Shown here: piece by piece, positions 34,493-57,814 of the stretch
How positions within the stretch are numbered: position 1 is the stretch's first letter
Layout of the letters: each line of letters starts with the position of its first letter
Source: a virus
Lineage: Duplodnaviria > Caudoviricetes
Length of the DNA stretch: 57,821 nucleotides
Virus record (IMG/VR): IMGVR_UViG_3300028571_002339
Coordinates: 1 to 57,821 of that record
Direction: 5' to 3' (one strand)
Position numbers and translations under genes: made by a program
The notes under the pieces: generated by a model
Databases searched by the model: none
The model's input: only the letters and a program-made list of their open reading frames with translations
What the model was told of the DNA's origin: nothing

Positions 34493-34607
34493 GCGACCGT
34501 TTTTGATTTTTACCACCCAATACACCTAATCCGCATTAAAAAACGATTTTAAAACACGTTAAAAGGGTTTTAAAAATGGTTTTGACTAACTTCATAAAGG
34601 ATTTTTT

Positions 34608-37888: not shown

Positions 37889-37928
37889 ATTAAAAGAGAT
37901 TTAAAACACATTTAAAAGGAGTTTAAAA

Positions 37929-39177: not shown

Positions 39178-39191
39178 ATTCTAAATAATTC

Positions 39192-41012: not shown

Positions 41013-42123
41013 TTTCTACTCCAATTTTGATATTAGACTTTGGAACTTCTGCTAATAATGCAGTTTCGACAAAAATATTGGTTATTGAAGGCTTGGTAAT
41101 TTTAAACTTATAGCCCAAATTCCAACTTTCAATTAAAGGTTTTATTTTAAAGAAATCCTCAGCATTATGATAAATTGAAATATTTAATGCCGGTTTTTGG
41201 GATTTTATTGTATTAATCGCACCTTGCAACAAATATCTTTCAGCTCCTTCTACATCAACTTTTATTAATCCAACCTTGATATCATGTTGTTTTACAAAAT
41301 TATCTATTGTCGTAAAATGAACTTTTTCAATATTGGAACCACTATTTCTATAAGAATTTATAGATGTAGACTGTCCTGCAATACCAGCGACATAAATATC
41401 CTTGTCAGTTTCTTTATCTAATAATCCTAGTTTTACTGGGATTACATTTTTTAGATTATTAATTTCAATTGTTTTAGTTAAAGATTCATAAAGTTTACTA
41501 ACGGGTTCAAAGCTATAAACATTATCTGATGTAAGCCTTGAGAACAATACTGCTGAATCACCAATTGAGGCACCTGCATCTATTACACTTTTTGAAAAAT
41601 CAATATTGTCAAATTCTTTTAAATTATGTTCGTAGTAGAAAACTGATGAATCAAAAAATGAATTTGGTAATAAATAATCTTTGTATGCCCAAATCTCTTT
41701 ATCCACTTGCACAATAGATTTCACAAAATTTGCTTGCAAATTTCTTAATTCGGATAATTCCTCGTTACTAAGAAAATAAAAGCGATTGTTAGTATTTTTC
41801 AATTGTTGTATTCTTGCTAAAGCTTTTTGAACATTCAAAACACTTTCATCATCTAATCCTTTTATTAAATTTAAATAATCATCTTTAATGTTAATTTTGT
41901 TTAAATAAGGATAAAAATCATTGGATAATATAACTGGTTCATCTAATAAATCCATGATATTATTTTGTATTCGACATAATGAATCACTTTTTAAATTAAC
42001 TTCTGTAATTTTATCAAGTATTAAATTTGATAATTTAAGTTTAATTTTTAAACCTAAAATAGTTATAACTTTGTGACCATTTTGATTTTTAATAGAAAGT
42101 ATCGTATTTAATAGTTTTTTCAT
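40999..42123 (-). CDS. FkbM-family methyltransferase
   Basis: VIDAGASIGD, SFEP, IKVDVEGAE, ISIYH; start MKKLL after GGAG. Confidence 0.9.
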   Translation of the reverse strand: MKKLLNTILSIKNQNGHKVITILGLKIKLKLSNLILDKITEVNLKSDSLCRIQNNIMDLLDEPVILSNDFYPYLNKINIKDDYLNLIKGLDDESVLNVQKALARIQQLKNTNNRFYFLSNEELSELRNLQANFVKSIVQVDKEIWAYKDYLLPNSFFDSSVFYYEHNLKEFDNIDFSKSVIDAGASIGDSAVLFSRLTSDNVYSFEPVSKLYESLTKTIEINNLKNVIPVKLGLLDKETDKDIYVAGIAGQSTSINSYRNSGSNIEKVHFTTIDNFVKQHDIKVGLIKVDVEGAERYLLQGAINTIKSQKPALNISIYHNAEDFFKIKPLIESWNLGYKFKITKPSITNIFVETALLAEVPKSNIKIGVENEIK

Positions 42124-42124
42124 T

Positions 42125-43366
42125 TTAACTCCATTCCGTAATTTCTTTTTTTGATATAGCAAATTTTTGTACTTTTCTATTTTTAATATCACAATATTTG
42201 CAAAAATCACTTCTATGAGTGCAGAATTCAGCTATTTCTTCATAAGAGTTGGCTTTATAAATATCGATATAGTCATTTTCTGTTACCTCTAAATTTTGAT
42301 TAAAATGCTTATTAAAATAGCCAACATAAGGTATAAATGGACAGGTATATATTTTACCGTGTCTTAAAGTTATACTTTCATTAAATTGATAACAAGATAC
42401 ATACTGGTATTTTTCAACATTCCCTTTTAAATCAAAAGGGTGATGAACAGAGAGTTTATCAATATCTTTACCAAAATATTTATTTTGTCCGGCTTCATTT
42501 GGATTTACTTTTCCGATTTCAACAAATCGTTCATATTTTAAACCATATTGTTTTGCTTTTGTATCAATTTTTTGAAAATCTAATTTTACAGGATATGATG
42601 TAACCATCAATGTTACATCATAATCTTTCATTGCTTGCCATAAATTACCATTTTCACAATTTTCAAGCTGTAATAATAAAATTCCGTTAGTAAAGAAAAA
42701 TATTGTAGATGTTGGGAATTTTTCTCTTGTTATGCGCATAAAATCTATTAATTGTGGGTGTAGAGTTGGCTCTCCACCTTGAATTTTAAAAATGCCCATT
42801 TCGTTATTCATTAATTCTGCAAGACGAGACATATCTTTTTCAAATTCATTAATATCAAGTAACTTTTTATCTGCAATCGGTGAAAAATGATCACAACATT
42901 GGCAATTTAAATTACAGTGGTCTGCAATATTAACTTCTAACCAAAAATTTTCTTTTGAGCGTGGAGTCATTTTATGAGGAATAGTTCTTTTATTCCATTC
43001 TGTCATAAAATATATTTCATCAAATCCATATTTTTTAAGTTGGTTATATGTCCAATTACACATATAATCTTCATTACCGACAATAACACAGGTATCACGT
43101 TGAATTCGTCTTGTTTTATGAAAAATATTTGATTTTGCGACTCTGTCATGAGCTTGCTGCAGAGTATATACTGGTTTGGCTGCATTAACAATCTGATCAT
43201 TATTATCAATCAAAAAGCCTTCTACCACTATATCACACGATTTTAAGAATTTTTCAAGTAATATCTGTGAACATTTACAGTCATAAATAAAAACATGTTT
43301 ATGTTTCCCACAATATTTTACTAAGTCTTCAACTTGAACTATATTTGGGTTATCATTATTAGCCAT
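42125..43366 (-). CDS. radical SAM protein with C-terminal Fe-S domain
   Basis: CNLNCQCC (CxxxCxxC), GGEPTLHP, TNG, GKIYTC, FCKYC. Confidence 0.9.
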   Translation of the reverse strand: MANNDNPNIVQVEDLVKYCGKHKHVFIYDCKCSQILLEKFLKSCDIVVEGFLIDNNDQIVNAAKPVYTLQQAHDRVAKSNIFHKTRRIQRDTCVIVGNEDYMCNWTYNQLKKYGFDEIYFMTEWNKRTIPHKMTPRSKENFWLEVNIADHCNLNCQCCDHFSPIADKKLLDINEFEKDMSRLAELMNNEMGIFKIQGGEPTLHPQLIDFMRITREKFPTSTIFFFTNGILLLQLENCENGNLWQAMKDYDVTLMVTSYPVKLDFQKIDTKAKQYGLKYERFVEIGKVNPNEAGQNKYFGKDIDKLSVHHPFDLKGNVEKYQYVSCYQFNESITLRHGKIYTCPFIPYVGYFNKHFNQNLEVTENDYIDIYKANSYEEIAEFCTHRSDFCKYCDIKNRKVQKFAISKKEITEWS

Positions 43367-44588
43367 TATGTGCTCCTATTAATTTATTTGTATCTTTTAT
43401 TTTATTCAATTTAGCGATGACGTCATCTATAATCAATTTCTCATCACTGTATTTGTTTACATCATATTCAAAAATAATTTCATTATTCACATTCGGTAAT
43501 TTTTTAATTGAAAAACCACTTAAAACTTTACTTGATTGAATTCTTTTAAACCCAGGACGCTTAGGAAAATCTGTATAAAAAGCAAATAAAGGTACTCCAG
43601 ATTGTGATAGACATTCCAAGAAGCCACTCCTTAAACCGATAATAGCTTTAGCGTATTTTGAAAGTTCTATAGCTTCTTCATATGTTAAAAATGCAGATTG
43701 AGTTCCTACAACTAAATTTCTAAATTCCATTGAGTTGCAAAAAACTTCATAGCCTAAACTTCTAAATTTTTTACATAAATTTTCCCAAAAATCTTTTTCC
43801 ATTGGTTCATTACTTAATGTTTCAGGAGATATAAAAATGAAATTATTGTTCAATATATAATTCGCAATGTTATTAATTTTGTTTTTTGTTTCAGGAGATA
43901 TTGAAAAATTTGAAAGACTGCAGTATTTCAAATTTAAATGTTGTTTTAAGCATTCATAATAATGTGCGTTATTATTTCTAATTTTATCTTCAGTTTCTAT
44001 GAAATATTTTTCACAAGTTGGAATATATATCGTTTTAGATTTGTAATTCATTTTTATTTTATTAATTGCTCTGGAAACTAAAGGGACATTTACTTTTTTA
44101 ACATAAACCATGGGAATATGAGGGAAGAACATTTTGCATATATTTAAATGATATTTTGCTGTAAAAATAAGAATAAAATTTTTAGATTTATTATTTTCCA
44201 ACCACTGTGCAAAATGGTGCATTAGTAAATAAAATTCACCGCTACGAGAAAGAAATATATAATAATCGTCATATTCATCATATTTATTTAAAATTTTATC
44301 TAAAAATTCGTTTTTGAATTGCCCAGTTGTCTTTTTTATCCAAATTGGCAATGAGAATAAATAAAATATTTTATGTGAATTTTGTAGCTTACTTTGAAAA
44401 AAACGAAAACCAAATACTCTTAAAGTAAAAATGTGTTCGTCTTTATTAAATTTAAAGTAAATTAAATTTAATAATAATTTAATTTTAACTTCCGAATCTT
44501 CTTTATCGATGGATTTGCTGTATATGGTACAACCGCAAATTTTTACTTTGAGTTTTCTTTTTTCTTTTTTCACTTTAATTATTTGCAT
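43359..44588 (-). CDS. putative GT-B glycosyltransferase (GT9/heptosyltransferase-like)
   Basis: SGEFYLL, FISPETLS, FW, IIGLRSGFLE; N-terminal beta-hairpin repeats. Confidence 0.6.
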   Translation of the reverse strand: MQIIKVKKEKRKLKVKICGCTIYSKSIDKEDSEVKIKLLLNLIYFKFNKDEHIFTLRVFGFRFFQSKLQNSHKIFYLFSLPIWIKKTTGQFKNEFLDKILNKYDEYDDYYIFLSRSGEFYLLMHHFAQWLENNKSKNFILIFTAKYHLNICKMFFPHIPMVYVKKVNVPLVSRAINKIKMNYKSKTIYIPTCEKYFIETEDKIRNNNAHYYECLKQHLNLKYCSLSNFSISPETKNKINNIANYILNNNFIFISPETLSNEPMEKDFWENLCKKFRSLGYEVFCNSMEFRNLVVGTQSAFLTYEEAIELSKYAKAIIGLRSGFLECLSQSGVPLFAFYTDFPKRPGFKRIQSSKVLSGFSIKKLPNVNNEIIFEYDVNKYSDEKLIIDDVIAKLNKIKDTNKLIGAHNG

Positions 44589-45802
44589 AAATCTTTTTCC
44601 TGTTGTTTTTTTACTGTAAAGGAATTTACAATCTGCATGAGTACATTTTTATTAGATAATTCTGACATATTGAATTCATAGAGATTATCTGGATTTATAT
44701 TTGGCAATTTATTCAACCCAAAACCTGACAATACAAATTCAACTGCCATATCGTTAAAGACATATCTATTTCTGAATTTTGTATATAAGCTAAATAACGG
44801 AACATTAGTTTGCAGAAGAGATTCTGTTAATCCACTTCGTAAAGAAACAACGCCTTTGGATAATTTAGCTAATGCAAAAGCTTCACTGAAAGTTAATTTA
44901 CAAGTCTTATAATCACAGCCGATAATATCTGTATCTTTATCAACAATATTCATAAAAACGTCAATTCCAGCATTGTTAAATTCTTCACATAAGTCAACCC
45001 AAAAATCATTGTCATATTCCTCACAAGAGACAGCTTCAGGAGCAATAAACACAAAATTATTAAGATTTAATTTCGTTTTCTTTATTTTTTTTAATAGTGA
45101 ATGGTGAATACCAGCAGGAACTTTGGCTTCCCTAAAATCTAAATCCTTTTCGTCTATTTTAAGTTCATCTATAATTGAATAAAAATAGTGAGAAGTATCA
45201 ATCGGATTATTTTTTATATCCTGTTCAACCTTGATAAAATGTTCCCCTCTAAATAGAGTAAAAAACCTTTGGCGATTAATAGTTGTGCAAAGGTTTTTGA
45301 AATTTTTCTCTAGCTTTGGAATGTAAATATAAGGCACATCAGCCCATAACAATTTTATCAAATCAACATGATATTTTTTTGTCGCAACTAAAATAAAATT
45401 GGTGCTATTAATTTTTTTCAAAAATGGAACTAATAAATAAGTTAAAAACAGGTATATTTCTCCGCTGTTTGCATTTAAAATCAAAACATCATCATATCCG
45501 TTAAAATATTTTCTGTTTTTTTCCTGAAAAATTTGCTTTAAATTTTTTGAGCAAACAAGTTTTTCAAGAAAATATACTTTTCTGTAATTTTCATCTTCTA
45601 TCCTTTTAGTAATTTCTTTCCCAAAAACTTTTGTAGATTTTATCTCTGTATCATCTTCTAGTTTAACTTTTAATGTCAGAATAAGATTCCCTAAAAATCT
45701 TTGAGTTCTCTTTTTGTAACCATTAGTTACAATGTATACTACATTTCCAAATATTTTTACTATTCTTGAACATCCACGTTTTTTATTTTCAAATAACCAC
45801 AT
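44579..45802 (-). CDS. putative GT-B glycosyltransferase (GT9-like), paralogue
   Basis: SGEIYLF, FIAPEAVS, FW, VVSLRSGLTE. Confidence 0.6.
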   Translation of the reverse strand: MWLFENKKRGCSRIVKIFGNVVYIVTNGYKKRTQRFLGNLILTLKVKLEDDTEIKSTKVFGKEITKRIEDENYRKVYFLEKLVCSKNLKQIFQEKNRKYFNGYDDVLILNANSGEIYLFLTYLLVPFLKKINSTNFILVATKKYHVDLIKLLWADVPYIYIPKLEKNFKNLCTTINRQRFFTLFRGEHFIKVEQDIKNNPIDTSHYFYSIIDELKIDEKDLDFREAKVPAGIHHSLLKKIKKTKLNLNNFVFIAPEAVSCEEYDNDFWVDLCEEFNNAGIDVFMNIVDKDTDIIGCDYKTCKLTFSEAFALAKLSKGVVSLRSGLTESLLQTNVPLFSLYTKFRNRYVFNDMAVEFVLSGFGLNKLPNINPDNLYEFNMSELSNKNVLMQIVNSFTVKKQQEKDLCK

Positions 45803-46791
45803 TATATTACTCCGCTATTTAAGCAATCATGGATATGTATAACCCCGACAGGTTTGTTATTTTCTATTACAAACAAATTTGTAATTTTCTTTTCATTCAT
45901 TATTTTTATTGCTTCTGTTGCCATTGCTGAAGGTATAATTGTTTTAGGGCATTTTGTCATCAAGTCAATCGCATTTTTATTTAAAACGTTTGCAGACAGA
46001 CATCTTCTTAAGTCGCCATCTGTTAGAATACCAATGAACTCTCCCAGTGAATTTACAAATCCAACACAGCCTAATCTTTTAGATGTCATTTCTAACAATG
46101 CTTCCTGCATAGAAACTTGTTCTCCCAAAATTGGCAACTCACTACCTGTATGCATTAAATCTGAAACCTTCAATAGCACTGAACCAAGTTTTCCGCCTGG
46201 ATGTCTTTGATTAAAATCAGTTTTCGTAAAACATTTTCGCTCCATTAATGCAACCGTTAAAATATCACCAAGTACAAGCGTTGCCGTAGTTGATGAGGTT
46301 GGAGCTAATCCAAGAGGACAAGCTTCTCTTGCGTTTGGAAGTTTTAGAATGATATCACAGGCTTTTCCAAGTGTACTTTCTTCTTTTTTTGCGATTCCAA
46401 CTAATGGAATGCCAAATCTTTTGCAATAATTTAAAATATCAGCTAGTTCTTTTGATTCTCCGCTATTAGAAATTGCAAAAACAACATCTTCTACTGTTAA
46501 CATTCCTAAATCGCCATGACTGGCTTCTGCCGGATGTATAAAAAATGCAGGTGTTCCTGTTGAGGCTAAAGATGAAACAATCTTGCGTCCTATAATACCT
46601 GATTTTCCCATTCCTGTAAATACAATTCTCCCTGTAGTTTTCTGCATTAAATCTAATACTTTTGTAAGAGATTCATCCAAGCTATCTTCCAAAACTCTTA
46701 AGCTTTCTATTTCTTTTTCAATAGTTTTTTTTGCGGAAATTATATCTGAATTTTCTAATTTTGATATATCTTTAATTATTGTAGATTGCAT
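45802..46791 (-). CDS. kdsD: arabinose-5-phosphate isomerase (KdsD/KpsF/GutQ; SIS + CBS)
   Basis: GMGKSG, STGTP, HPAEASHGDLG, SNSGES, APTSSTT, HPGG.LG, TDGDLRR. Confidence 0.92.
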   Translation of the reverse strand: MQSTIIKDISKLENSDIISAKKTIEKEIESLRVLEDSLDESLTKVLDLMQKTTGRIVFTGMGKSGIIGRKIVSSLASTGTPAFFIHPAEASHGDLGMLTVEDVVFAISNSGESKELADILNYCKRFGIPLVGIAKKEESTLGKACDIILKLPNAREACPLGLAPTSSTTATLVLGDILTVALMERKCFTKTDFNQRHPGGKLGSVLLKVSDLMHTGSELPILGEQVSMQEALLEMTSKRLGCVGFVNSLGEFIGILTDGDLRRCLSANVLNKNAIDLMTKCPKTIIPSAMATEAIKIMNEKKITNLFVIENNKPVGVIHIHDCLNSGVI

Positions 46792-46800
46792 TTTACCCCC

Positions 46801-47166
46801 CTATAGTTGTGCATTTATTTTATAATTAATCTCTAATTTTTCATCACGTTTTTTATTGATTGCATAAGCTGTTTTTAGTCCTGATGGCTTTTCATCATTG
46901 ACTAAAATCCGCTCACCCATGGGCATATCACAAATCAAATTATTATAACGTAGGTTATTTTCTTTCAAAAATTTAATTAAGCATTCAAGATGTTCAGCTT
47001 TTCTTGCTGTCAAAAGAATTATTTTATCTTCAGGGTTAAGACTATCAAAAAAATCTCTTACTCCATCTAATAAAATGTCACCGCCATTTAGGTGTCCATT
47101 GTGTTTTAATAATGTCCCGTCGACATCTATTATCCAAGTTTTTGCCAAAGGAGATAGTTCAATCAT
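46801..47166 (-). CDS. minimal HAD-family phosphatase
   Basis: IDVDGT, LTAR, VNDEKP. Confidence 0.8.
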   Translation of the reverse strand: MIELSPLAKTWIIDVDGTLLKHNGHLNGGDILLDGVRDFFDSLNPEDKIILLTARKAEHLECLIKFLKENNLRYNNLICDMPMGERILVNDEKPSGLKTAYAINKKRDEKLEINYKINAQL

Positions 47167-48669
47167 TTAAAAAACCTCCCCAAGTTTCACAATTCCGTTG
47201 TAAAAAGCACCACAAATGGAATCATAATCTTCCCAAGCATATGTAGTTAATGACAACCAAATTATGGCATGTAGTAGTTTGATTTTTCTTTTGTTAACCA
47301 ATGGAAGACAATCGAAGAAAAATTCTTCCATATCTGCCCAGTTATTAGGTTTTATAGCAAATTCAACATCTTCTTTTCTAATATCAAGAGTGAATTTTTT
47401 ACGATTAAACTGGTCATATTCGCCATTTATTGAATAAAATAGTTTGGCCCAATCATAATCCACATCACCATAGAATTTTGTTTTCCCAAAATAACCTCTG
47501 GGATCAATTAAAATAGCCTTCATATCAAACGTATCAAACATTAAATTTGAAAAAGTACAATCTCCGTGAATCAATTTAAATTCTTTTGGAAACATAGTTT
47601 CGATGGTCGTATTTAACTTTTCTTTATTGAAAAACACATTTTTGTAATAACAACCATTAATTTTAATAAATTCATCTTCAGCAAACGGCACAAGTTTTTC
47701 TATTTCTGAAAGTCTATCAAATGTTTTTATAATATAGTTTTCTCTGATATCTTCTACGCAAACAGGCTTTATTGGCTCAAGATTATGTAGTTCTTTTAAG
47801 GCTTCAATAAGTTTTCTTAGAATTTCTCTCTTTTGCGATTTTGTAAGACAATCATATTCATAAATATTCTTCCCTTGAACTCGCTTCATTTTTAGAGGTT
47901 CATACTCGAGTATTTCTGGAATATTTTTATAACCTAAATCTTTGACATGTTTATACCAAGCTATTTCGTCTACTGCTATTTTTTTCCCTTGTTCATTAAT
48001 GCCTGTTTTTATTACTAAATCACCTTCAAAAAACATTTTATTAAATGGGCGGCAACAAGGTCTATCACAATTTGTTTCACTATAAGAAAGCATCGTTCCT
48101 ATCTCTTTAGTTCCGTATAAATCTAATCTTTTGAATTCAATATCTTGTTTTTCAAGCCAGCCAACCAAAGCACCTTCAATTGCAATATTTTTCAAAGGTT
48201 GTTTATTTTCAAAAACAAATAATCCAGCAACACCATTTTCTCTTGATGGGTCTTTAATAAATTCCCCATCAATAAATGACCATCTGCATTCAAAATCTTT
48301 TGATATACCAACAAAATTACCTTTTTCACTTGGAATTTTAAAGTCTTTAGAGAAAATTAAATCACACCATAGAATAATAACCTGTTCTTCCTCTGAAAAA
48401 TCTGTTAATGCTTCTTTAATCCCAGATGCCGTACCTTTTTTTGTTGCTTCAATAATCTTGTAATTGTATTTCGAGCCAAAGGCTTCAAGATATTTGTTCA
48501 ATACATCTGTTTTATAATCCGCAATAATAGAAAATTCTGCATCTGGAAATTTCTGAAAAATATGAAAAATAATCGGCAAATTATCAACAGGCACCAAACA
48601 TTTTGGTTTATTTCTTGTTAATTGTTCTAATCTTGTACCTTTTCCACCTGCTTGGATTATAATTTTCAT
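47167..48669 (-). CDS. nucleotidyltransferase + sugar/aminoglycoside-type kinase fusion
   Basis: QAGGKGTRL..LT..KPK, WCD; C-terminal IHGDCTFSN, IDPRG, YDWAK. Confidence 0.85.
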   Translation of the reverse strand: MKIIIQAGGKGTRLEQLTRNKPKCLVPVDNLPIIFHIFQKFPDAEFSIIADYKTDVLNKYLEAFGSKYNYKIIEATKKGTASGIKEALTDFSEEEQVIILWCDLIFSKDFKIPSEKGNFVGISKDFECRWSFIDGEFIKDPSRENGVAGLFVFENKQPLKNIAIEGALVGWLEKQDIEFKRLDLYGTKEIGTMLSYSETNCDRPCCRPFNKMFFEGDLVIKTGINEQGKKIAVDEIAWYKHVKDLGYKNIPEILEYEPLKMKRVQGKNIYEYDCLTKSQKREILRKLIEALKELHNLEPIKPVCVEDIRENYIIKTFDRLSEIEKLVPFAEDEFIKINGCYYKNVFFNKEKLNTTIETMFPKEFKLIHGDCTFSNLMFDTFDMKAILIDPRGYFGKTKFYGDVDYDWAKLFYSINGEYDQFNRKKFTLDIRKEDVEFAIKPNNWADMEEFFFDCLPLVNKRKIKLLHAIIWLSLTTYAWEDYDSICGAFYNGIVKLGEVF

Positions 48670-49721
48670 TTATTCCCCTCCTTATAGACACAAATACAAG
48701 CAAATAAATAATGCTTTCTACTGTTTGGTTCTTTTCTAATTAACCAAACAGGAATACCTAACATTGAATACTTAATGTATTCTCTTTTTTCTTTTACTCT
48801 CAAAGCTGTGAAGCAAAATCTATACATTTTTTGATTACTCTTTGTCTCAATCTGAAAAAATGGTCCTATTTTATCTACTTGTGACCCAGTCGCAATAATT
48901 TCTTCTATATTTTTACCAGGTATTTTTTTTAGACTATATAAAGAATAAGTTTCTGTATCTGGATAAAATACTGTCATTTTATCTATATAATTTAAAATCA
49001 AGTCAACAAAACCTGAGCGAACAGCATAAACACCAGCACAATTTATACCAATGGCAAGTGATTCTTCCATGCTTAAATCTAAATAAACGGTACCCTTAAT
49101 TGCTTCTTTTTTATCAAGTACACTTGAGATAACTGTGAACCCTTTTTCAAAAAGTCTTTCAACTTCAAGTTCTAAAACTCTTCGATTTATTTTTTTTGTG
49201 GAGAAAGCTTCAGGAGAAAATAAAATTATTTTCTCCAAAGGAGCTATTTTTGAAAGTTTTTGTTCTAATGATGGTGTTATATATGGAGTATTTTTTGGCT
49301 CTTTCCAAACACTGTAATCAGGTAACGCTATGGTCTTTTGAAAAAGCTTGATGAAATCAATTTTTAAATCAGCAAAAGAATTTAATAATTTGTGGTTGTC
49401 ATCTAAAAAATAAGGGTGAGCAACAAAGTACTTACCAATTTGCATTGTAGGGTTTTTATCTGCAATTTGCTCCAATTCATCTTCTGTAAATGCCTTAATT
49501 GAATAATCCGAAATATTAAACAACTTCATTACAATTTCATGCTGTTGCTTGATAATAAAATTTACTTTAGCTTTATAAAAGTCCTCAATAGCCTCTTTAA
49601 AACCACATAGTGCCATGATATCACCATATCCATAAGGAGATATGAGGTTAAATTTATCAGGTGCAATTTCCTGTTTTAAATTATTTAAAAATACGATGTT
49701 ATCTTTACTTGATACCGCCAA
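48666..49721 (-). CDS. putative GT-B glycosyltransferase (GT9-like), first gene of the cargo operon
   Basis: GYGDIMAL, LFSPEAFS, YAVRSGFVD; TTG start after AGAGG. Confidence 0.6.
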   Translation of the reverse strand: MAVSSKDNIVFLNNLKQEIAPDKFNLISPYGYGDIMALCGFKEAIEDFYKAKVNFIIKQQHEIVMKLFNISDYSIKAFTEDELEQIADKNPTMQIGKYFVAHPYFLDDNHKLLNSFADLKIDFIKLFQKTIALPDYSVWKEPKNTPYITPSLEQKLSKIAPLEKIILFSPEAFSTKKINRRVLELEVERLFEKGFTVISSVLDKKEAIKGTVYLDLSMEESLAIGINCAGVYAVRSGFVDLILNYIDKMTVFYPDTETYSLYSLKKIPGKNIEEIIATGSQVDKIGPFFQIETKSNQKMYRFCFTALRVKEKREYIKYSMLGIPVWLIRKEPNSRKHYLFACICVYKEGNK

Positions 49722-49746
49722 CTATATGCCTCTTTAATCTTTTCAA

Positions 49747-49774
49747 GCACCACATAATAAACCTTATGTGACGT
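49747..49774 (+). other. dif-like tyrosine recombinase site 1
   Basis: GCACCACATAA-TAAACC-TTATGTGACGT (11-6-11). Confidence 0.7.
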
Positions 49775-49800
49775 TTCCACTATTTTTATCGCCATTTTAA

Positions 49801-49828
49801 CACAAACATAATAAACCTTGTGTGGTGA
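49801..49828 (+). other. dif-like tyrosine recombinase site 2
   Basis: CACAAACATAA-TAAACC-TTGTGTGGTGA. Confidence 0.75.
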
Positions 49829-49848
49829 ATTCCGTTCCCGTCAATGAA

Positions 49849-49878
49849 ACCATACCACAAAAACAGTTGCCATAACAA
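49849..49878 (-). promoter_or_regulatory. candidate sigma70 promoter in the invertible segment, facing the cargo operon
   Basis: Minus strand TTGTTA-N18-TATGGT with TG extended -10. Confidence 0.4.
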
Positions 49879-49996
49879 TTTGTAGCAAGTTTATTAACAT
49901 TATTTAAAATATGTTTTTTAAATTTATGTTGTATTAGAAGTATTTTTAGTAAAACAAATACCCTTAAACAGCAAAGAAATAAGGGTTTTATTTTAT

Positions 49997-50024
49997 ACAC
50001 CACATAAGGTTTATTAAGTTGTTT
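49997..50024 (-). other. dif-like tyrosine recombinase site 3 (inverted)
   Basis: ACACCACATAA-GGTTTA-TTAAGTTGTTT; reverse complement has the same TAAACC spacer; 21/24 identical to site 2. Confidence 0.75.
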
Positions 50025-50071
50025 TAATAATTAAGTTGTCTTAAGCTTTTAAAACCTTTGTTGATAAGGAG

Positions 50072-50614
50072 TTACAGAACAAAGTTATTGTAACTTTCGT
50101 CAATTTCTTCTTGTTCAATTCCAATGTATCTTAATGTTGTACTTGGCGACGAATGGTTAAATATTTTTTGAAGAATAACAACATCTTTGAATTGTTGATA
50201 GTGGTGGTAGCCAAAAGTTTTTCTTAGAGAGTGAGTCCCGATTTTACAATCTAAGCCTGCTTCACGACAAGCACCGTTTATAATTTTATAGGCTTGAAAG
50301 CGGTCCAACCTCCCATTAAATCTTGTTTTAAAAAGAGGCTCATCCCCTGATTTTCCCTCAATAAAATTATCAATCATAGCTTTTAATTTGATATTTATTG
50401 GAAATTTTTTGTGTTTTCCTGTTTTCTTCTCAACAACAGCAATATGTGTTTTATTTTGAACATCCTTAATGTTTAGCCCCAAAATATCAGATATTCTTAG
50501 ACCACTGTTTGTACCCATAACAAACATAAGCAGGTTACGCTTGCTCCCTGCTAGTAAAATTTTTTCTACACATTTGATAATTTTTTTATCTCGTATCGGT
50601 TCGACAATGTTCAT
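50072..50614 (-). CDS. small tyrosine recombinase (catalytic domain only; invertase/resolvase-like)
   Basis: GLRISD (R), EKKTGK (K), HSLRKT (HxxR), FNHS (H), RYIG (Y); 180 aa, no arm-binding domain. Confidence 0.92.
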   Translation of the reverse strand: MNIVEPIRDKKIIKCVEKILLAGSKRNLLMFVMGTNSGLRISDILGLNIKDVQNKTHIAVVEKKTGKHKKFPINIKLKAMIDNFIEGKSGDEPLFKTRFNGRLDRFQAYKIINGACREAGLDCKIGTHSLRKTFGYHHYQQFKDVVILQKIFNHSSPSTTLRYIGIEQEEIDESYNNFVL

Positions 50615-50689
50615 TTTTTCTCCTTATACTGTCCTGTACCTCCTAAAAAGCCACAGGCTCAAAATTAGAGAGTATTTGCTGTTGTATTA

Positions 50690-51001
50690 TTATTTAAGTC
50701 CAGTACGTTGTCTTGCAATTTTGTAAATATATCCTTCAGAAACTCCGCATACTTTTGCAAGCTCATAACGAGATTTTTTGGAACCGTCATAATGTTTTTT
50801 TATGTAGCGGATTTTGGCATTTGCTGCAGCTTTTTGAGGTATGGAAATGTTTATGCCTTGCAGTTCACACATCATCTTTACTGCTACTTCAAGGCTTATT
50901 AAATCGGCAACGATTCTTAAATCCTCATTTGGCAAATCATCTTTTGTTATTTCTTGAGCCCATGGTTGTTTAATTTCTAATTGTTCGTCCAAAATAACCA
51001 C
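50690..51001 (-). CDS. Mor/C-family transcription activator
   Basis: DLP...R.VADLI, G..ISIP, YDG....ELA...GVSE..IY. Confidence 0.8.
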   Translation of the reverse strand: MVILDEQLEIKQPWAQEITKDDLPNEDLRIVADLISLEVAVKMMCELQGINISIPQKAAANAKIRYIKKHYDGSKKSRYELAKVCGVSEGYIYKIARQRTGLK

Positions 51002-51938: not shown

Positions 51939-52817
51939 TCACACTATTATTTGGCTGATACTAGCCTGCAAAACATCCTCATTCACTTCCATATTGTTGA
52001 TTTCTGCAATACGGATTGCTCTGACCAACAGCTTGGTCAGAACTCTCGTATTACCTGAACAATATTCAGATAGGGTAGTATATATTGATTTGTAGTTAGG
52101 GAGGATGGAGGATATTATTGCTTTTTTGTCTTCTTCAACAAGTGAATTCAGGCGAATAGAGATGCCAACTCTTGAAAAAAGCTGTGCATATTGCCTTTTT
52201 TCACCTTTAAGGTTCATAATCAAACGAGGCATTCCGACAAGTAAAATTCCTACTTGTGCCTTGTCGTAAATTCTTCTCAAAAGCTCTAACGACTTATATG
52301 GCAGGTGTTCCGCTTCATCAATAATTATTAAACGACCCGAAGATTTTAGCTTATTAATTATGTCTAAAAACATTCCGTGGATTGTGCCACAACCGTCAAA
52401 GCCAAGTTTTTTATGAATTTCTGAGAATAAAACTTTTGGAGTGTAGCCCAAATCTGCTTCTACCAAAATTACATCGGTGTTATCAATTGCATATTTTTTG
52501 ACCGCATAAGTTTTGCCGATTCCTGCATCGCCACAGCAAACTCCGATTTCATTTTCAACGTGGCAGATTTTAGCGATGTCAAAAACATCATCAACAATAG
52601 TGGTTTTGACAAAATCAACCTTAATTCTGCCCTCTCTCAATTTTTCAATTTCAAGAAAATTTGCAACCGCATCATCAATCTTTTTCACGTTGCCTTTGTA
52701 ATTACTGTTCATCCACAGGTGCAAAGTCGCATTCGAAACGTTTATAGCCTTTGCAGCATATGCCACCGTATATTTTTTATTCTTTAATAATTCTTTTAAT
52801 TCTTCAATTAAACTCAT
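51939..52817 (-). CDS. MuB-like transposition ATPase (B2)
   Basis: N-terminal HTH, GDAGIGKT, LIIIDEAE, LRRIYD. Confidence 0.92.
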   Translation of the reverse strand: MSLIEELKELLKNKKYTVAYAAKAINVSNATLHLWMNSNYKGNVKKIDDAVANFLEIEKLREGRIKVDFVKTTIVDDVFDIAKICHVENEIGVCCGDAGIGKTYAVKKYAIDNTDVILVEADLGYTPKVLFSEIHKKLGFDGCGTIHGMFLDIINKLKSSGRLIIIDEAEHLPYKSLELLRRIYDKAQVGILLVGMPRLIMNLKGEKRQYAQLFSRVGISIRLNSLVEEDKKAIISSILPNYKSIYTTLSEYCSGNTRVLTKLLVRAIRIAEINNMEVNEDVLQASISQIIV

Positions 52818-52825
52818 TTTTCCTC

Positions 52826-54778
52826 CTACATAGCCCTTTTTGCAATATCACGCTTTTTCTCGGTTTCAGTGAGATACAGCTTCTGTTTTTCTTTTATTGG
52901 CGTGACATACTTTTCAGCCCTAAAAGTAGATTGTTTGTTGCTTTTAACAACCTTATCCATTTTGGTGTTTGTGATTTTTGAAATTTTAGGATTATTTTCA
53001 AAGTTTGTTTGGGGTAATCCGTTTTTCAAATTGTTCACAATCTCAGCATTTGTCGGGTTATACTTGCATTTGATGTATGATTTTAAAAGTTTCTTTTCTT
53101 TATTTTTAGCCTCAACTGCCTTTTTATACTGAGCTTTTTCAATATTTGTTTTTGCCATAAATGATACAGCTTGGTTGACATTCGCATTGCCCAAAAATTC
53201 TTCTGTAGCAGCATCAAATACCCAAGCTTCCTGATAGGCGTTTATATCTCTTCTCAGGTAAACTTTTGTGCCTTTTTTAGCAATCATCCACTCATCCCAA
53301 TATGTAAGCTGAAGCTGTGAATCATATATGCCGTTTCTGCCGATTGAAACATCTTTTGAAGTTCGCATACAGAAAAGTTTGAGAGCATCTTTGCTGATTA
53401 TTTTCTTTATAGAATACTCTTCAGACCACAATTCGTCAGGGCATTTGCCCTGCAAGACCTTACCGCTTGAGGGCATTTTATTCAGAACATTGAGGATAAA
53501 ATCGTCAAACAAGGTTTTGAAATCCTCAAAAGGCATAATTTGGTCGTTTTTGATTTCGGTTTTTAATTTCTCAGGTCTTTCGGTAATTTTTCCGCCACGG
53601 TAGCCGACCATATGCTTTGAAAGATATGTTTTTACTTTTAAAAAATCTCTTTCAATAGGCTTTGTTTGCGCGTTATATGGCAGAGCAAAATGTACATTTA
53701 TACCTAGATTTTTCAGTAAAGAATTTTCTTTGGATGAGTTGTGTAAAACTTTTATTGAACCACTTCTGCCACCTGCAAAATCTTTGCAGCGATAGTCTTT
53801 TCCGTTATCAAGATAAATATCAATCGGAAGCCCAAACAGCAAAACTCCGTAATAAAAAGCTTGAAAAATATGGTCAGAATTTGGACTTTCAGCGTGCAAA
53901 AACCATCCTAACCATTTTGAAGATTTAATATCTCTAAAAACTGTCACCCACGGAAAACATACGCTACCGTTAAAATTAACGGCAACGTCAATTTGTGCGT
54001 GATCCGAAACCCAAAAGCTTCCGGCAGTGATGTTTGAATAATCTCTTGGAATATATGAAGCATACTTTTTATTCCAAGCCGCTTCGCCGTATCTTGCAAG
54101 GTAAATAGCTTGCTCGGGGACATCTTTTCTTAACATTCTGATAAAAGATTTAGAACTTGGAAAGTTTTTAATATCAATATTACAGGTTTCTTTTGCAAAA
54201 CCTAATGTCATTATCCACGCTGATTGAGCTGATGGAGCACCTTCTTTCAAGTATAGACTTTTGAAATAGTCAAAATATTCAGTGTCTATTTTAAAGCAAC
54301 CTTTTCTGTGTCCATATTTACTCAGTAGTGCTTCAATGCCGTTCTTTTCATATTTCCTTTTTGCTTCCATCAAAGTAGAATAGGCCGTTTTCCGCTCAGG
54401 ATATTTTTCATTCCATTTTGCTATAAAATCTTGTGTTTCCTTGTATGTCAGTTTTTCTGTCAAAGTGAACAGCTCAAGATATTTTTCTGCTTGTTTTCTT
54501 GCCCACGCAGGGGCGTTTGAATATTCTTCTAACGAGCAACTAATCTCCACTACTGGTGTTAAAATGACTTCATTTTTGTTTTTTGATTTCAAATATGTTT
54601 TTTGAAGTTCATCTTTTAGCGAAGATAAAGCAACGTAATAATGTTTGAATTTGCCGATTTTTTTAAAAGTAGAAACAAGCTCGCCAGCTTTGCATTTGCG
54701 TCTGATAGTTTCCTTTTTATCGCCGGATAAATCGCAAACCTCTTCAATTGTTAGCCATATCTCTTTATCTTCTTGCAT
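52826..54778 (-). CDS. MuA-like DDE transposase (A2)
   Basis: WVSDH, YLDNGKDY, KPIERDF; N-terminal HTH; Mu C-terminal domain. Confidence 0.92.
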   Translation of the reverse strand: MQEDKEIWLTIEEVCDLSGDKKETIRRKCKAGELVSTFKKIGKFKHYYVALSSLKDELQKTYLKSKNKNEVILTPVVEISCSLEEYSNAPAWARKQAEKYLELFTLTEKLTYKETQDFIAKWNEKYPERKTAYSTLMEAKRKYEKNGIEALLSKYGHRKGCFKIDTEYFDYFKSLYLKEGAPSAQSAWIMTLGFAKETCNIDIKNFPSSKSFIRMLRKDVPEQAIYLARYGEAAWNKKYASYIPRDYSNITAGSFWVSDHAQIDVAVNFNGSVCFPWVTVFRDIKSSKWLGWFLHAESPNSDHIFQAFYYGVLLFGLPIDIYLDNGKDYRCKDFAGGRSGSIKVLHNSSKENSLLKNLGINVHFALPYNAQTKPIERDFLKVKTYLSKHMVGYRGGKITERPEKLKTEIKNDQIMPFEDFKTLFDDFILNVLNKMPSSGKVLQGKCPDELWSEEYSIKKIISKDALKLFCMRTSKDVSIGRNGIYDSQLQLTYWDEWMIAKKGTKVYLRRDINAYQEAWVFDAATEEFLGNANVNQAVSFMAKTNIEKAQYKKAVEAKNKEKKLLKSYIKCKYNPTNAEIVNNLKNGLPQTNFENNPKISKITNTKMDKVVKSNKQSTFRAEKYVTPIKEKQKLYLTETEKKRDIAKRAM

Positions 54779-55226: not shown

Positions 55227-55925
55227 ATGTCAAACTTACAATCAAGAATTAAAAAAGTTAGAACTGAACATGGCATGTCAGTGGAAGAAGTTGCTAAAAA
55301 ACTTGCAGAAAACGGCATTAAAATTTCTGCTAGGACTATCTATTCCTATGAATTAAACGAAAGACAGCCGAGTGTTATGTACCTGCAAGCACTTGTCGAC
55401 TATTTAGAAGTTAATCCCGAGTGGCTTTTAAGCGGCAGGGGCGAAGTTTTTCCGTCAGAAACATCCGCAACCGATATGCCTGCACATGTTGATTTATCGC
55501 AAATGGTGTTTTTGCCATTAATAAATATGGCAGCATCCGCAGGATATGGAGCATTGATTGAAGAACGGGAAATGACAAAAGATTTCATTGCTTTTGCCAA
55601 AAAATGGCTGACTGATATAACAGTTACATCACCGAAGCATCTTTTAGCTTTTACGGTTAAAGGGAATTCGATGGCAGGCGAAATCAATGACGGGGACTTG
55701 ATTATTGTGAATGATACAATGAATGATTTAGCCAATGACGGAACTTATGTCGTAAGTATTGACGATAAATTATATGTTAAACTCCTGCAAAGAATTCCAG
55801 GAAACAAAGTTCAGGTCGTAAGCAAAAACCAAGAATACTCACCTTTCACCGTAGACTTGAAAACCGAGCACTTCAAAATTATTGGCAAAGTTATTTGGTC
55901 TGGTGGAAAAAAGGATAGGTATTGA
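55227..55925 (+). CDS. CI-like repressor (XRE HTH + S24 peptidase)
   Basis: HTH, ASAGYG cleavage site, VKGNSM (Ser), YVKLL (Lys). Confidence 0.93.
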   Translation: MSNLQSRIKKVRTEHGMSVEEVAKKLAENGIKISARTIYSYELNERQPSVMYLQALVDYLEVNPEWLLSGRGEVFPSETSATDMPAHVDLSQMVFLPLINMAASAGYGALIEEREMTKDFIAFAKKWLTDITVTSPKHLLAFTVKGNSMAGEINDGDLIIVNDTMNDLANDGTYVVSIDDKLYVKLLQRIPGNKVQVVSKNQEYSPFTVDLKTEHFKIIGKVIWSGGKKDRY

Positions 55926-56483: not shown

Positions 56484-57575
56484 ATGTTACTAAAAAATAT
56501 AATAAAAAGCATAAAAAATATGGTACTAAACAAATGCAGGCTTTCAGTAGAGAATCTGCCATATAAGCATATAAACAGAGAAGATATGATATTCTCTGAT
56601 AAAACTTTATGCATTATCGGGAATGGATTTGATTTAGCACACGGCGTAAAATCTAGCTACTATGATTTTAGAAAGTTTTTAGGTGAAAATTCAGATTTGC
56701 GAGAAATAATGGAAGCATATATCAGCAAACCTGACATATGGGGGGACTTTGAAAACAGCTTGGCGCATCTAGATAGAGAAATGTTGATAAATGACATTGA
56801 CGATACCCTTAATGATTTTAATGTTAAAGATGACGATGAGGATGATTTTTCTGCTGCTGATTATCATCTAGCTATTGAGTGTGCGGCGATGCCGGCTATA
56901 ATGATTGAACAGGAGCTTCCTGTAAAATTTAGACAATGGATAAATAAGTTACCAGCCGTAAACAATTCAAATCCTTTAAAACAAATCATAAATACAAATG
57001 CAAGATTTATAAACTTTAACTATACTGAATTTCTTGAAACCATTTACGGGGTTGAACATAAAAATATTTTATATATACATGGATGCCGAAAAAATAAAAA
57101 AGAAGAGTTAGTTCTAGGTCATGGTTATAATACTGAGAAATTATACGAGGAATGGTACGATGAGAACAAGTCAAGATGTGTATCGGAAAATAATCCAACA
57201 AAATTGGCATATTTTGCTGATGATGATGAGAATCTTGATGAATACAAAAGCCCCATTAGATATTATGCAATACAAGAAGCTCTAGGGCTAATTGAAGAAT
57301 ATTATGACAATTCTGCAAAGAAAACAGAAGACGTATTAAAGCAAAATAAGACCTACTTTGAAACTTTATATGATATTGAAAAAATACTAGTAGTAGGACA
57401 TTCCTTATCCCTAGCGGATTATTCATATTTTAAAGAAATTATTAATAGCAATATTAATAAAGAAGATTTATTGTGGCAAATTAGTTATTATAATAATGAA
57501 GACTTAAAAAGAATTGGCGTTTTTCTAGATAATATGAACATAAAATCAAAACAAGTTACTTTGTTTCACATATAG
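56484..57575 (+). CDS. AbiH-family abortive infection protein (SIR2-like fold)
   Basis: IIGNGFDLAHG, W.DFE, NFNYT, IHG, VGHSL..D..YF. Confidence 0.85.
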   Translation: MLLKNIIKSIKNMVLNKCRLSVENLPYKHINREDMIFSDKTLCIIGNGFDLAHGVKSSYYDFRKFLGENSDLREIMEAYISKPDIWGDFENSLAHLDREMLINDIDDTLNDFNVKDDDEDDFSAADYHLAIECAAMPAIMIEQELPVKFRQWINKLPAVNNSNPLKQIINTNARFINFNYTEFLETIYGVEHKNILYIHGCRKNKKEELVLGHGYNTEKLYEEWYDENKSRCVSENNPTKLAYFADDDENLDEYKSPIRYYAIQEALGLIEEYYDNSAKKTEDVLKQNKTYFETLYDIEKILVVGHSLSLADYSYFKEIINSNINKEDLLWQISYYNNEDLKRIGVFLDNMNIKSKQVTLFHI

Positions 57576-57741
57576 AAAAAGTTTTGCTTTTTTTAATTAT
57601 CTTTCAAAAAATAAAACTTCCGACTCTTAAAAATTTAATTCTAAAATTTATGGTTTTATGTGTCAGACATTATGGATTTAAGTGTCCAATTATAATTACG
57701 CCTAAGGATACCCGAACGGGTAGAACCCGTAGGGTGAGAAA

Positions 57742-57814
57742 ACCAGCTTTGGATTTCGGGTAATAAAAAAACTGCCTTGCGACAGTTTTTGAAAAATCAG
57801 AGAAGTAGGGATTC
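57742..57814. repeat. att-like direct repeat, right copy (exact core 57762..57814)
   Basis: Matches 25..96. Confidence 0.9.
57767..57790 (-). terminator. tRNA terminator hairpin
   Basis: AAAAACTG-N8-CAGTTTTT just 3' of the tRNA. Confidence 0.6.

Follow-up and report, generated by a model that had tools for sequence, protein, structure and literature searches.

The whole stretch of viral DNA analysed here (57,821 nucleotides, hereafter the window) quite probably carries an inverton, in which a tyrosine recombinase reduced to its catalytic domain would flip the DNA between two sites, S2 and S3, and thereby switch a phage-borne glycan operon. Comparison of related loci indicates that segments of this kind flip in close and distant relatives, and because of this the phage can probably switch the surface sugars of its host. 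The initial annotation had seen in the locus a recombinase-driven invertible segment fronting the glycan operon, a view that the sequences largely support. It had also offered the locus as a candidate new system; the kind of switch, an invertible one, is already known.

The features of the locus, in positions of the window, are the following.

39192-49721, minus strand: cargo operon of nine genes, 10.5 kb (Pfam and NCBIfam)
49751-49770, plus strand: site S1, 0 mismatches, an extra direct copy at the junction with the cargo
49771-49804, no strand: stretch of 34 bp separating S1 from S2, absent from the two-site form
49805-49824, plus strand: site S2, 2 mismatches, spacer 49812-49817, distal boundary of the putative invertible segment
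49825-50000, no strand: putative invertible segment, 176 bp between the 20-mers of S2 and S3
49849-49878, minus strand: candidate outward promoter, facing the operon
49950-49996, both strands: hairpin with stem 49960-49966 / 49980-49986, set between an A-run and a T-run
50001-50020, minus strand: site S3, 2 mismatches, spacer 50008-50013, recombinase-proximal and inverted relative to S1 and S2
50072-50614, minus strand: tyrosine recombinase (P0001), 180 aa, catalytic domain only (Pfam PF00589)
50690-51001, minus strand: mor-like activator of middle genes, immediately upstream of the recombinase (Pfam PF08765, E 9.3e-07)

The tyrosine recombinase

The recombinase matches Pfam PF00589 over residues 22-166 with 85.5 bits (cut-off 27.1) and PHROG 216, 'integrase', with an E-value of 1.9e-57. 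Residues R40, K64/K67, H128, R131, H154 and Y163 are the same in all aligned homologues (18 of 18). Judged from this alignment, the enzyme is intact with a complete catalytic hexad; the window copy is presumed to be active. Its family is large: at least 7993 relatives have an E-value of 0.001 or lower among 8000 candidates scored. The Pfam search found no Resolvase domain in the protein; the sole Resolvase-domain protein of the window is a large serine recombinase of 633 aa, encoded at 9266-11167.

An AF2 model of the recombinase (pLDDT 87.5) has its best fold matches in the catalytic domains of XerA, XerH and XerD and in the catalytic core of lambda Int, with a Foldseek probability of 1.00 to XerA (5hxy, 4a8e) and a TM-score of 0.70, normalised by target length, to the lambda Int core (1ae9). 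By sequence and fold alike, the nearest solved relatives are Xer catalytic domains, and the PDB matches are restricted to C-terminal halves. The alignments to the Xer models are partial, covering positions 107-263 of 263 in XerA, 126-288 of 295 in XerC and 125-286 of 290 in XerD, with scores of 93.1, 72.3 and 68.4 against cut-offs of 220, 335 and 330, respectively. The description of the sites as dif-like holds for their arm-spacer-arm shape only; the enzyme is devoid of the Xer N-terminal domain and far below the Xer cut-offs.

The locus had also been likened to FimB/E-type switches. Size, architecture and the adjacent segment agree with this, but the profile cut-offs of the FimB/FimE models NF007371 and NF007370 are missed (43.7 vs 222 and 32.2 vs 221 bits, respectively); the alignment covers positions 25-172 of the 198-position invertase model. 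The integron-integrase models are missed as well, with 39.3 vs 265 for TIGR02249 and 19.8 vs 435 for NF011946. On these profile and fold comparisons, the enzyme is a catalytic-domain-only recombinase with a FimB/FimE-like architecture, and not a Xer protein.

The three recombination sites

A 20-mer composed of a 7-bp arm, the spacer TAAACC and a second 7-bp arm has three matches in the whole window, against 0.02 expected. None of 100 shuffled controls reached three matches, and a fourth copy is absent from the window at up to three mismatches. All three sites, S1, S2 and S3, share the TAAACC spacer and are placed, just as first annotated, between the recombinase stop codon and the leading gene of the operon, which starts at 49721 on the minus strand; the site nearest to the stop codon begins 52 nt past it. 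S1 and S2 were located as the direct repeats that had been claimed, 54 bp apart from start to start. The inverted relation of S2 and S3 was recounted with the same outcome, S2 and the reverse complement of S3 agreeing at 21 of 24 nt. In the repeat search this pair appears with 37-nt arms that are 78% complementary and 164 nt apart. From spacer to spacer, the S2-S3 segment extends over 49818-50007, and S2 is the point where public contigs break.

The S2-S3 segment is conserved in the homologous loci L010 and L012. Hardly any differences separate the window, L010 and L012 in the promoter-side half of the segment, in S2, in the 34-bp stretch and in S1. At the other end, the outer S3 arm of the window departs at two of seven positions from the form that L010 and L012 retain, with a 1-nt indel beside it; given this degenerate arm, the window copy may flip poorly.

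Inside the segment: candidate promoter and hairpin

The candidate promoter, found by reading the sequence, is composed of a -35 element TTGTTA (49878-49873), an 18-nt spacer and a TGn motif with a -10 element TATGGT (49854-49849). The block is kept in three of three clade members, and it is placed where the L004 group has a strong TTGAAA...TATAAT element. It was left unlisted by the promoter scan because only 8 of 12 consensus positions match. From its position only, we infer a putative promoter within the segment that would direct expression of the operon. Across 57 units, the consensus promoter scan did no better than shuffled controls: the mean best score was 9.83, against 9.72 in shuffles, and the fraction of units scoring at least 10 was 0.42, against 0.39 in shuffles. 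By hand count, the best -10 element lies 39-55 nt from a unit end in 26 of the 57 units, and only this recurring position hints at a promoter common to the units.

The hairpin folds as RNA with -12.9 kcal/mol on the minus strand (z -2.77) and with -9.5 kcal/mol on the plus strand (z -3.15). Its stem is retained in L012 with one G-U pair. It was not picked up by a simple terminator scan, and Rfam returned two matches only, each under its gathering score. The hairpin appears terminator-like on both strands and could function as a terminator.

A promoter-like match across S3 (TTAATA, 16 nt, TAAAAT) was rejected because neither L010 nor L012 retains it and it runs straight into the hairpin. A 68-aa open reading frame inside the segment (49797-50003) is spurious, as stop codons break it in L010 and L012.

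Inversion and deletion in relatives and public contigs

In 69 of 141 related loci, the 650 nt downstream of the recombinase gene hold an inverted-repeat pair that matches at 19 or more positions. Its left arm typically starts 45-50 nt after the stop codon and its interior measures 130-190 bp. The repeat sequence varies among clades, yet it matches within each locus. Deduplication leaves 63 unique units. Nine clusters of near-identical relatives have at least two members, and three of these contain both orientations with unchanged flanks (1 vs 12, 5 vs 1 and 1 vs 1). Between L024 and L004, the interior is 100% identical in reverse and 55% forward, while both flanks are 100% identical forward.

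For the sister, L012-type allele, one public contig carries the predicted S2xS3 inverted junction (run X1, record 2; 345 nt, depth 16.9). It runs from the L012-type cargo junction through S1 and outer S2 into 13 nt of the S3 inner flank of the same allele, and stops exactly at a 30-mer common to the un-inverted path. Cargo junctions of the window type and of the L012 type are both present in run X1. In run X4, one contig (record 8, depth 5.2) joins outer S1 to inner S2, the product expected under the earlier claim that S1xS2 recombination would delete 54 bp; the three-site form has a depth of 13.4 in this run. The cargo-junction variant of the two-site contig differs from that of the three-site contig, so the two-site form may be a fixed strain difference. 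Both the inverted and the deleted forms are loose ends of one short contig each, with no joints listed.

A flipped window allele was not seen in the record or in the contigs of run X1, where rare variants get dropped, and the S1xS3 product was not seen among public contigs. In a scan of viral contigs, the predicted inverted junction was not found, and the S3 inner junction was matched by G001 only. The proposed S2xS3 switch is supported by relatives in both orientations and by the junction of the sister allele, whereas the window allele itself is seen ON-facing only.

The cargo operon and its phage

The nine genes of the operon encode three glycosyltransferase-like proteins (351, 407 and 409 aa), a sugar-phosphate nucleotidyltransferase fused to a kinase, a KpsF/KdsD-type isomerase, a 121-aa protein, a radical SAM enzyme, an FkbM methyltransferase and an MsbA-like ABC exporter. 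For the 351-aa and 407-aa proteins, the Atlas gave GT9-like leads, with nearest clusters from Melainabacteria, and phmmer against the PDB returned nothing useful. The 407-aa and 409-aa genes have a repeat in common, and the 121-aa protein has a weak PHROG match to phosphoheptose isomerase. Family names and the Atlas leads together suggest a glycan function. Most likely, a Kdo/heptose-type surface glycan would be made and exported in a diderm host, which is probably a melainabacterium.

Mu-like genes of the window include those of an S24 repressor, a MuA-type transposase, a MuB ATPase, GemA and Mor, as well as a Mu portal, MuF, MuG, MuI and a sheath protein. By this gene content, the module sits inside a Mu-like phage. 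The mor-recombinase junction is common to the window, L010 and L011. A repeat search of the whole window found no transposon-type terminal inverted repeats; the record edges carry an imperfect direct repeat of 75 nt.

Probable cargo exchange at the sites

Homology of the window to L010, L011 and L012 ends at 49748, which is the outer edge of S1. In the L004 group, a different cargo sets in right behind the distal repeat in L029, L030, L033, L034 and L116, and slightly beyond it in L031; in the printed sequences, a ribosome-binding site and a start codon follow within about 25-35 nt. Because one cargo operon gives way to another precisely where the distal site has its outer edge, the sites are probably also crossover points, and crossover sites common to related phages would thus double as breakpoints of the cargo operons.

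Two different glycan operons follow the same module. The module, 884 bp long, follows mor in the window; in G001 it follows MuG and has the opposite orientation. The differing order of phage modules in the two could not be derived from a single inversion. The layout recurs in a Helicobacter sp. locus, where the next gene is homologous to the nucleotidyltransferase gene of the window, with 87.5% identity over the short stretch available. Melainabacteria and their Mu-like phages form the centre of the family.

Tentatively, the recombinase, its sites and the genes downstream could be a portable unit at operon ends in Mu-like phages of Melainabacteria and in some chromosomes, with sites that both flip the promoter and swap glycan operons between co-infecting phages. 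The cargo would then be phase-variable in the lysogen, because the sites flip the promoter. Such phages would carry phase-variable and swappable serotype-conversion operons, and the three-site version would allow four arrangements with two different leader sequences.

Proposed mechanism and alternatives

We propose that the 180-aa recombinase would bind the arm-spacer-arm sites directly downstream of its own gene and invert the segment of about 180 bp between S3 and S2. This segment would bear a hairpin terminator beside S3 and an outward promoter at the opposite end, beside S2. In the window orientation, the terminator would shield the operon from read-through out of the phage early and middle genes, and the promoter would read through S2 and S1 into the nine-gene operon. 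As the promoter reads out into the glycan operon, this orientation would be ON. After S2xS3 inversion, the promoter would face the recombinase gene and the hairpin, which folds on both strands, would come to lie just before S2: OFF. S1 would permit the 54-bp deletion and might in principle allow another inversion over a longer stretch. The operon would build and export a Kdo/heptose-type surface glycan, leading to phase-variable lysogenic conversion, with a presumed ON/OFF effect on the operon and on the phenotype of the host surface.

The window copy might instead be a relic locked ON within a true inverton family, the operon being constitutively expressed from the segment promoter because the S3 outer arm has decayed. 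The two deviating positions out of seven in that arm, the adjacent indel and the ON-only state of the window-type allele in the record and in the run X1 contigs would all fit a relic. We nevertheless hold it to be unlikely: the recombinase gene is undamaged and encodes every catalytic residue, S1 and S2 are intact, as are the spacer and the inner arm of S3, and a minority orientation is invisible in contigs. In other tyrosine invertases, working sites tolerate imperfect arms.

The breakpoints described above bear on another explanation, in which the sites mainly serve for attachment or crossover in an integron-like platform, one that captures and swaps cargo operons, inversion being a by-product. 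The loss of homology to L010, L011 and L012 at the S1 outer edge, the cargo changes after the distal repeat in the L004 group and the different places of the 884-bp module in the window and in G001 could be read this way. This is quite improbable, since the far cargo end has no site (at up to three mismatches in the window and up to four in G001) and the integron-integrase models lie far below cut-off; three extra 14-mer matches were found, all at unrelated places. The conserved feature is moreover an inverted pair around a short segment, which occurs in both orientations, and a single crossover between collinear phages suffices for cargo exchange. It is scarcely credible that the sites form a dif- or cer-like multimer-resolution locus of a Xer-type enzyme, in spite of their arm-spacer-arm shape and of the Xer catalytic domains being the closest solved relatives of the recombinase. 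The enzyme has no N-terminal core-binding domain and falls under all Xer cut-offs, three sites of mixed orientation directly after the gene make the wrong layout, and the orientation polymorphism of the relatives already contradicts a resolution locus.

Significance

Bacteroides, enterobacteria and Clostridioides are well-known carriers of invertible promoters. Our literature search found no report of invertible promoters in Melainabacteria, nor of a tyrosine-invertase switch on a transposable phage. A 2026 methods paper presents 16 unvalidated candidates as 'viral invertons', a term that the search found in this paper only (PMC13501310).

If the proposed promoter inversion works, a temperate phage would confer on its host a surface glycan that is reversibly ON or OFF, with effects on phage superinfection, on grazing and, in gut relatives, on immune recognition. 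The sharp cargo breakpoints would account for a trade of accessory operons among such phages. As the module is easy to recognise, it could enter inverton catalogues.

Comparison with known systems

The fimS element of Escherichia coli, which governs type 1 fimbriae, is a short invertible segment with inverted repeats and an outward promoter, served by FimB and FimE. The present locus resembles it in having a single-domain tyrosine recombinase of about 200 aa encoded beside a short segment and a surface-structure operon. It differs in having one recombinase gene instead of two, three sites instead of two, and a 20-nt core in longer imperfect repeats where fim has 9-bp repeats. It is furthermore carried by a phage, in a host of another phylum, and its enzyme scores far below the family cut-offs.

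The serine invertases are represented by Gin with the G segment of Mu, Cin of P1 and, in Salmonella, Hin; Gin flips tail-fibre coding sequence and so alters host range. Here as there, a Mu-type phage brings along an invertase together with a segment for it to flip, close to accessory genes. In contrast to Gin, however, the enzyme is a tyrosine recombinase and the segment is non-coding and presumably regulatory, placed before host-directed glycan genes. The gtr operons of P22-like prophages confer phase-variable O-antigen glucosylation that is controlled epigenetically, via Dam and OxyR. They share with our locus a prophage-borne glycan-modification operon; for ours, too, an ON/OFF regime is proposed, with DNA inversion as the switch instead.

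The capsular polysaccharide loci of Bacteroides have chromosomal invertible promoters, mostly flipped by a global serine invertase located elsewhere. In our case every module comes with a small tyrosine invertase and is borne by a phage. Shared with these loci is the arrangement of invertible promoters before alternative surface-glycan operons, a general theme in two papers (PMC11892184, PMC11602134).

RecV of Clostridioides difficile, a tyrosine recombinase described as belonging to the XerC/XerD family, inverts short segments between inverted repeats, among them the cwpV and flagellar switches, and thereby switches surface proteins (PMC2784873, PMC5386303, PMC7446863). The first of these papers mentions fimB and fimE beside the fim switch, describes the cwpV switch as acting through an intrinsic terminator, and places recV away from its switches, one enzyme serving several loci (PMC2784873). 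Compared with RecV by description, our system differs in that the gene adjoins its own sites.

Cultured phages supply 305 homologues of the recombinase. The closest parallels in cultured phages of Firmicutes are the recombinases of phi3626 (ORF46), BtCS33 (gp49) and phi105, which are 47-49% identical to ours over the full length. In BtCS33, the recombinase gene follows a transcriptional activator, assigned to the ArpU family in the annotation of sister records. A flipped form was not seen among 13 Bacillus phage records related to BtCS33. In both phi3626 and BtCS33, a gap of 180-207 bp after the recombinase gene holds two palindromic sites, which differ from those of the window in being only about 50-85 bp apart; the annotation of these loci goes no further than 'integrase'. 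Should the module indeed be a portable unit of the kind outlined above, these homologues, with their paired sites behind the late activator, would point to a much wider, unrecognised class of phage regulatory recombinases.

The phage genome and its cargo operon

The 57,821 bases of the window make up a complete IMG/VR virus record, organized as follows:

55227-55925, plus strand: S24-type repressor
leftward of the repressor, minus strand, in this order: small HTH protein, MuA-type transposase, MuB-type ATPase, GemA, 81-aa protein, Mor
50072-50614, minus strand, left of Mor: 180-aa tyrosine recombinase
49721 down to 39192, minus strand, left of the recombinase: nine co-directional genes (cargo operon)
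beyond the cargo operon, plus strand: terminase, Mu portal, MuF, MuG
minus strand: MuI, capsid, sheath and tail genes

On its sugar side, the cargo operon encodes three glycosyltransferase-like proteins, a sugar-phosphate nucleotidyltransferase-kinase fusion and a KpsF/KdsD-type isomerase; its other named products are a radical SAM enzyme, an FkbM methyltransferase and an MsbA-like exporter. Two DNA methyltransferases, C5-cytosine and Dam-type, lie inside the head-morphogenesis operon (36022-37146 and 37929-38741), and the Dam-type gene stands just ahead of MuG in most relatives.

The record may combine two transposable elements. It has two separate transposase/ATPase pairs (3023-5789 and 51939-54778): a 695-aa protein carrying a Mu-transposase C-terminal domain and an rve domain, next to a TniB-like ATPase, and the MuA/MuB pair. 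The two are adjacent to each other in G001, a relative's contig with the same switch module. Each end of the record has one copy of a direct repeat, imperfect and roughly 75 nt long (22-96 and 57739-57814; 56 nt at 98% identity). The right-hand copy extends into an apparent tRNA T-arm and acceptor end, truncated by the window end, where ARAGORN found no complete tRNA. The repeats resemble attL and attR of an element inserted into a tRNA gene, an unusual feature for a Mu-like phage. A large serine recombinase of 633 aa (9266-11167; Resolvase and Recombinase domains), encoded between the tail genes and the pair with the 695-aa transposase, could be their integrase. Both ends also carry defence-type genes (620-2943 and 56484-57575): at one, a TPR-sensor protein of 459 aa has a TIR/ThsB-like protein on either side; at the other, an AbiH-family protein lies past the repressor. 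Near the end of the tail region, beside a DUF4268 gene, lies a near-perfect 25-nt palindrome (12448-12499; 96% complementary, 2-nt loop).

Architecture of the switch

Exactly three copies of a palindromic site, against 0.02 matches expected by chance, lie in the gap that separates the recombinase stop from the first operon gene:

49751-49770, plus strand: S1, 7-bp inverted arms, spacer TAAACC
49805-49824, plus strand: S2, 7-bp inverted arms, spacer TAAACC
50001-50020, minus strand: S3, 7-bp inverted arms, spacer TAAACC

The initial annotation, which had described three sites with this spacer at this location, is correct in every detail that could be checked. Aligning the window with two related alleles (loci L010 and L012) shows that the S2-side half of the invertible segment, S2, a 34-bp stretch and S1 are almost invariant, and that conservation drops strongly in the middle of the segment.

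A candidate promoter directed at the operon lies about 25 nt inside S2: a conserved TTGTTA, an 18-nt spacer and TGn-TATGGT. It sits at the position of the consensus-like promoter in relatives of the L004 group. The initial annotation likewise had a promoter-like sequence facing the operon. The element agrees with the promoter consensus at only 8 of 12 positions, and in consensus scans such AT-rich units were not separable from shuffles. Beside S3 we found a hairpin with a 7-bp stem, an A-run on one side and a T-run on the other, which folds on both strands (z-scores -2.8 and -3.2) and is retained in L012 with one G-U pair.

Given this promoter-like element facing the operon and the hairpin next to S3, we infer that the present orientation would be ON, with the putative terminator first and the promoter reading outward via S2 and S1. 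After a flip, the switch would be OFF: the promoter would run antisense to the recombinase gene and the hairpin would stop read-through just before S2.

The recombinase is a minimal catalytic domain

The recombinase consists of a catalytic domain and little else. Its Pfam match spans residues 22-166, and with Xer models and solved Xer structures it aligns to the C-terminal halves only. The structure, predicted with confidence (pLDDT 87.5), matches Xer catalytic domains and the isolated catalytic core of lambda Int. All six catalytic residues are invariant in all 18 homologues compared (47-76% identical to the recombinase). It falls under the curated cut-offs of every named family model scored.

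Scores of the recombinase against family models (bits, with cut-off)
XerA: 93.1, cut-off 220, below
XerC: 72.3, cut-off 335, below
XerD: 68.4, cut-off 330, below
FimE-type invertase: 43.7, cut-off 222, below
integron integrase: 39.3, cut-off 265, below

It is like FimB/FimE in size and layout, but judged by score it is not a member of that family. Recombinases 47-49% identical to it occur in the cultured Firmicutes phages phi3626 (L167), BtCS33 (L168) and phi105 (L169). In BtCS33 the gene comes after a transcriptional activator, of the ArpU family by annotation in sister records; two palindromic sites 50-85 bp apart lie in the post-gene gap of phi3626 (L167 3048-3164) and BtCS33 (L168 3072-3187).

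The module is conserved among relatives

Judging from database searches the recombinase family is very large, with 7993 of 8000 scored candidates at E ≤ 0.001. We took related loci from viral (8), metagenome (71) and genome contigs (80). An inverted-repeat pair, defined by at least 19 matching positions no more than 650 nt after the gene, is present in 69 of the 141 loci with enough downstream sequence. In relatives about 60-70% identical, the left arm begins 45-50 nt past the stop and the interior measures 130-150 bp. The repeat sequence varies between clades, and both arms match within each locus.

Among the 80 genome-contig loci, 42 are titled Gastranaerophilales, Melainabacteria, Vampirovibrio or Cyanobacteria MAGs; 25 are without a name and the remainder are scattered. 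In 56 of 157 loci the gene immediately upstream, on the same strand, is MuG, usually with MuF and a Dam-type methylase ahead; the module therefore typically resides at the end of the head-morphogenesis operon in Mu-like phages of that host group. In the window, L010 and L011 the module directly follows mor instead; L004 has just a weak Mor match, about 4.3 kb upstream. At L014 a reverse-transcriptase gene (1371-2294; Pfam RVT_1) precedes the module in place of MuG, and at L038 an ORF comparable in size and location is present (1482-2390). Downstream of the module the two loci differ, with a PDZ protein gene in L014 and a gene for a SecDF-head-like protein in L038.

The segment inverts in relatives

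Removing duplicates left 63 unique units (repeat pair plus interior), of which near-identical ones were grouped. Both orientations of the interior, with unchanged flanks, are found in three of the nine groups with at least two members.

Groups with both interior orientations
L004 group: orientation A, 1 (L004, on three contigs); orientation B, 12
second group: orientation A, 5; orientation B, 1
third group: orientation A, 1; orientation B, 1

The L024 interior is 100% identical to that of L004 in reverse and 55% forward, while both flanks are 100% identical forward. A strong TTGAAA...TATAAT element is directed at the downstream genes in L004 and at the recombinase in the twelve flipped units. 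The segment between the repeats therefore really inverts in relatives.

The window, L010 (equal to L011 over the region compared) and L012 (on the same contig as L002 and G001) each have the three sites, and the arrangement has the same orientation in all of them. We compared public contigs with window 49300-50700. In run X1, record 2 (345 nt, depth 16.9) begins in L012-type cargo and continues across S1 and S2, where it shows all three letter differences between L012 and the window and no others. Past the inner arm it carries 13 nt of the flank located inside S3 in L012, and it ends exactly where its last 30 letters equal the un-inverted path. This short contig is the product expected of an S2xS3 inversion in the L012-type allele. 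The window-type allele appears in these contigs in the record's orientation only. Inversion is borne out in relatives and, on one contig as the proposed 2x3 product, in the sister allele.

The initial annotation also foresaw a 54-bp deletion between S1 and S2 and a multi-state switch. In record 8 of run X4 (depth 5.2), the cargo-side arm of S1 is linked to the inner arm of S2, which is, on one short contig, the predicted deletion form. A three-site contig accompanies it at depth 13.4; since the two differ at one letter of the cargo junction, they may be different strains. As for the multi-state switch, the 2x3 product is seen on one contig and an S1xS3 product on none of the public contigs compared.

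Cargo changes at the distal site

Homology of the window to L010, L011 and L012 extends to 49748, which is the outer edge of S1, and no further. The same module is followed in G001 by a different glycan pathway: a DegT aminotransferase, two hexapeptide acyltransferases, an AMP-binding enzyme, a GFO/IDH oxidoreductase, a radical SAM/SPASM enzyme, an FkbM methyltransferase and a KdsA-like synthase. Cargo likewise switches directly past the distal repeat in the L004 group, in whose printed sequences a ribosome-binding site and start codon lie within about 25-35 nt of that repeat. In L090, from Helicobacter sp., the recombinase is accompanied by similar sites and a 189-bp interior, and a homologue of the window nucleotidyltransferase gene starts ten nt past the distal repeat.

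Such junctions could reflect integron-like capture or single crossovers between collinear phages at shared sites. Site scans of the window and G001 showed no second copy of the site at the cargo's far end, and we therefore prefer single crossovers.

Within the phage backbone of G001, the 884-bp module has the opposite orientation and another location; no single event was found that would account for this. In both phages, the window and G001 (loci L083-L085), the terminase-to-MuG block (window 32005-39192) and the MuI-capsid-tail block run divergently. The two records place the early region and the recombinase-cargo block on different sides and in different orientations, and one inversion is inadequate to account for the block order. 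A 44-residue C-terminal fragment of MuG is found at G001 53232-53362, minus strand. On the 417-kb contig of L010 (region L010 1-2062), a truncated copy of the 695-aa transposase gene, fused directly to a 484-nt tail-gene fragment (window 17204-17687), precedes the mor-recombinase-switch-cargo block; this resembles a decayed prophage that has retained switch and cargo.

Comparison with known systems

Our literature searches found nothing related on invertible elements in Melainabacteria (hsdS inverton work is unrelated), no report on phase variation in Gastranaerophilales, only a review on prophage invertons with a tyrosine recombinase, and no report on inversion by ArpU plus tyrosine recombinase in prophages. 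A 2026 methods paper proposes 16 putative viral invertons without validation (PMC13501310). By a term search, the main text of a large inverton survey mentions neither cyanobacteria, Melainabacteria nor phage; its supplement may list such loci (PMC11602134).

As read here, the window switch would operate in the manner of fimS with FimB/FimE and of the C. difficile RecV switches (RecV mechanism and gene location from PMC2784873). It differs from both in being carried by a transposable phage, in its host lineage, in its three sites and in the cargo junction at its distal site.
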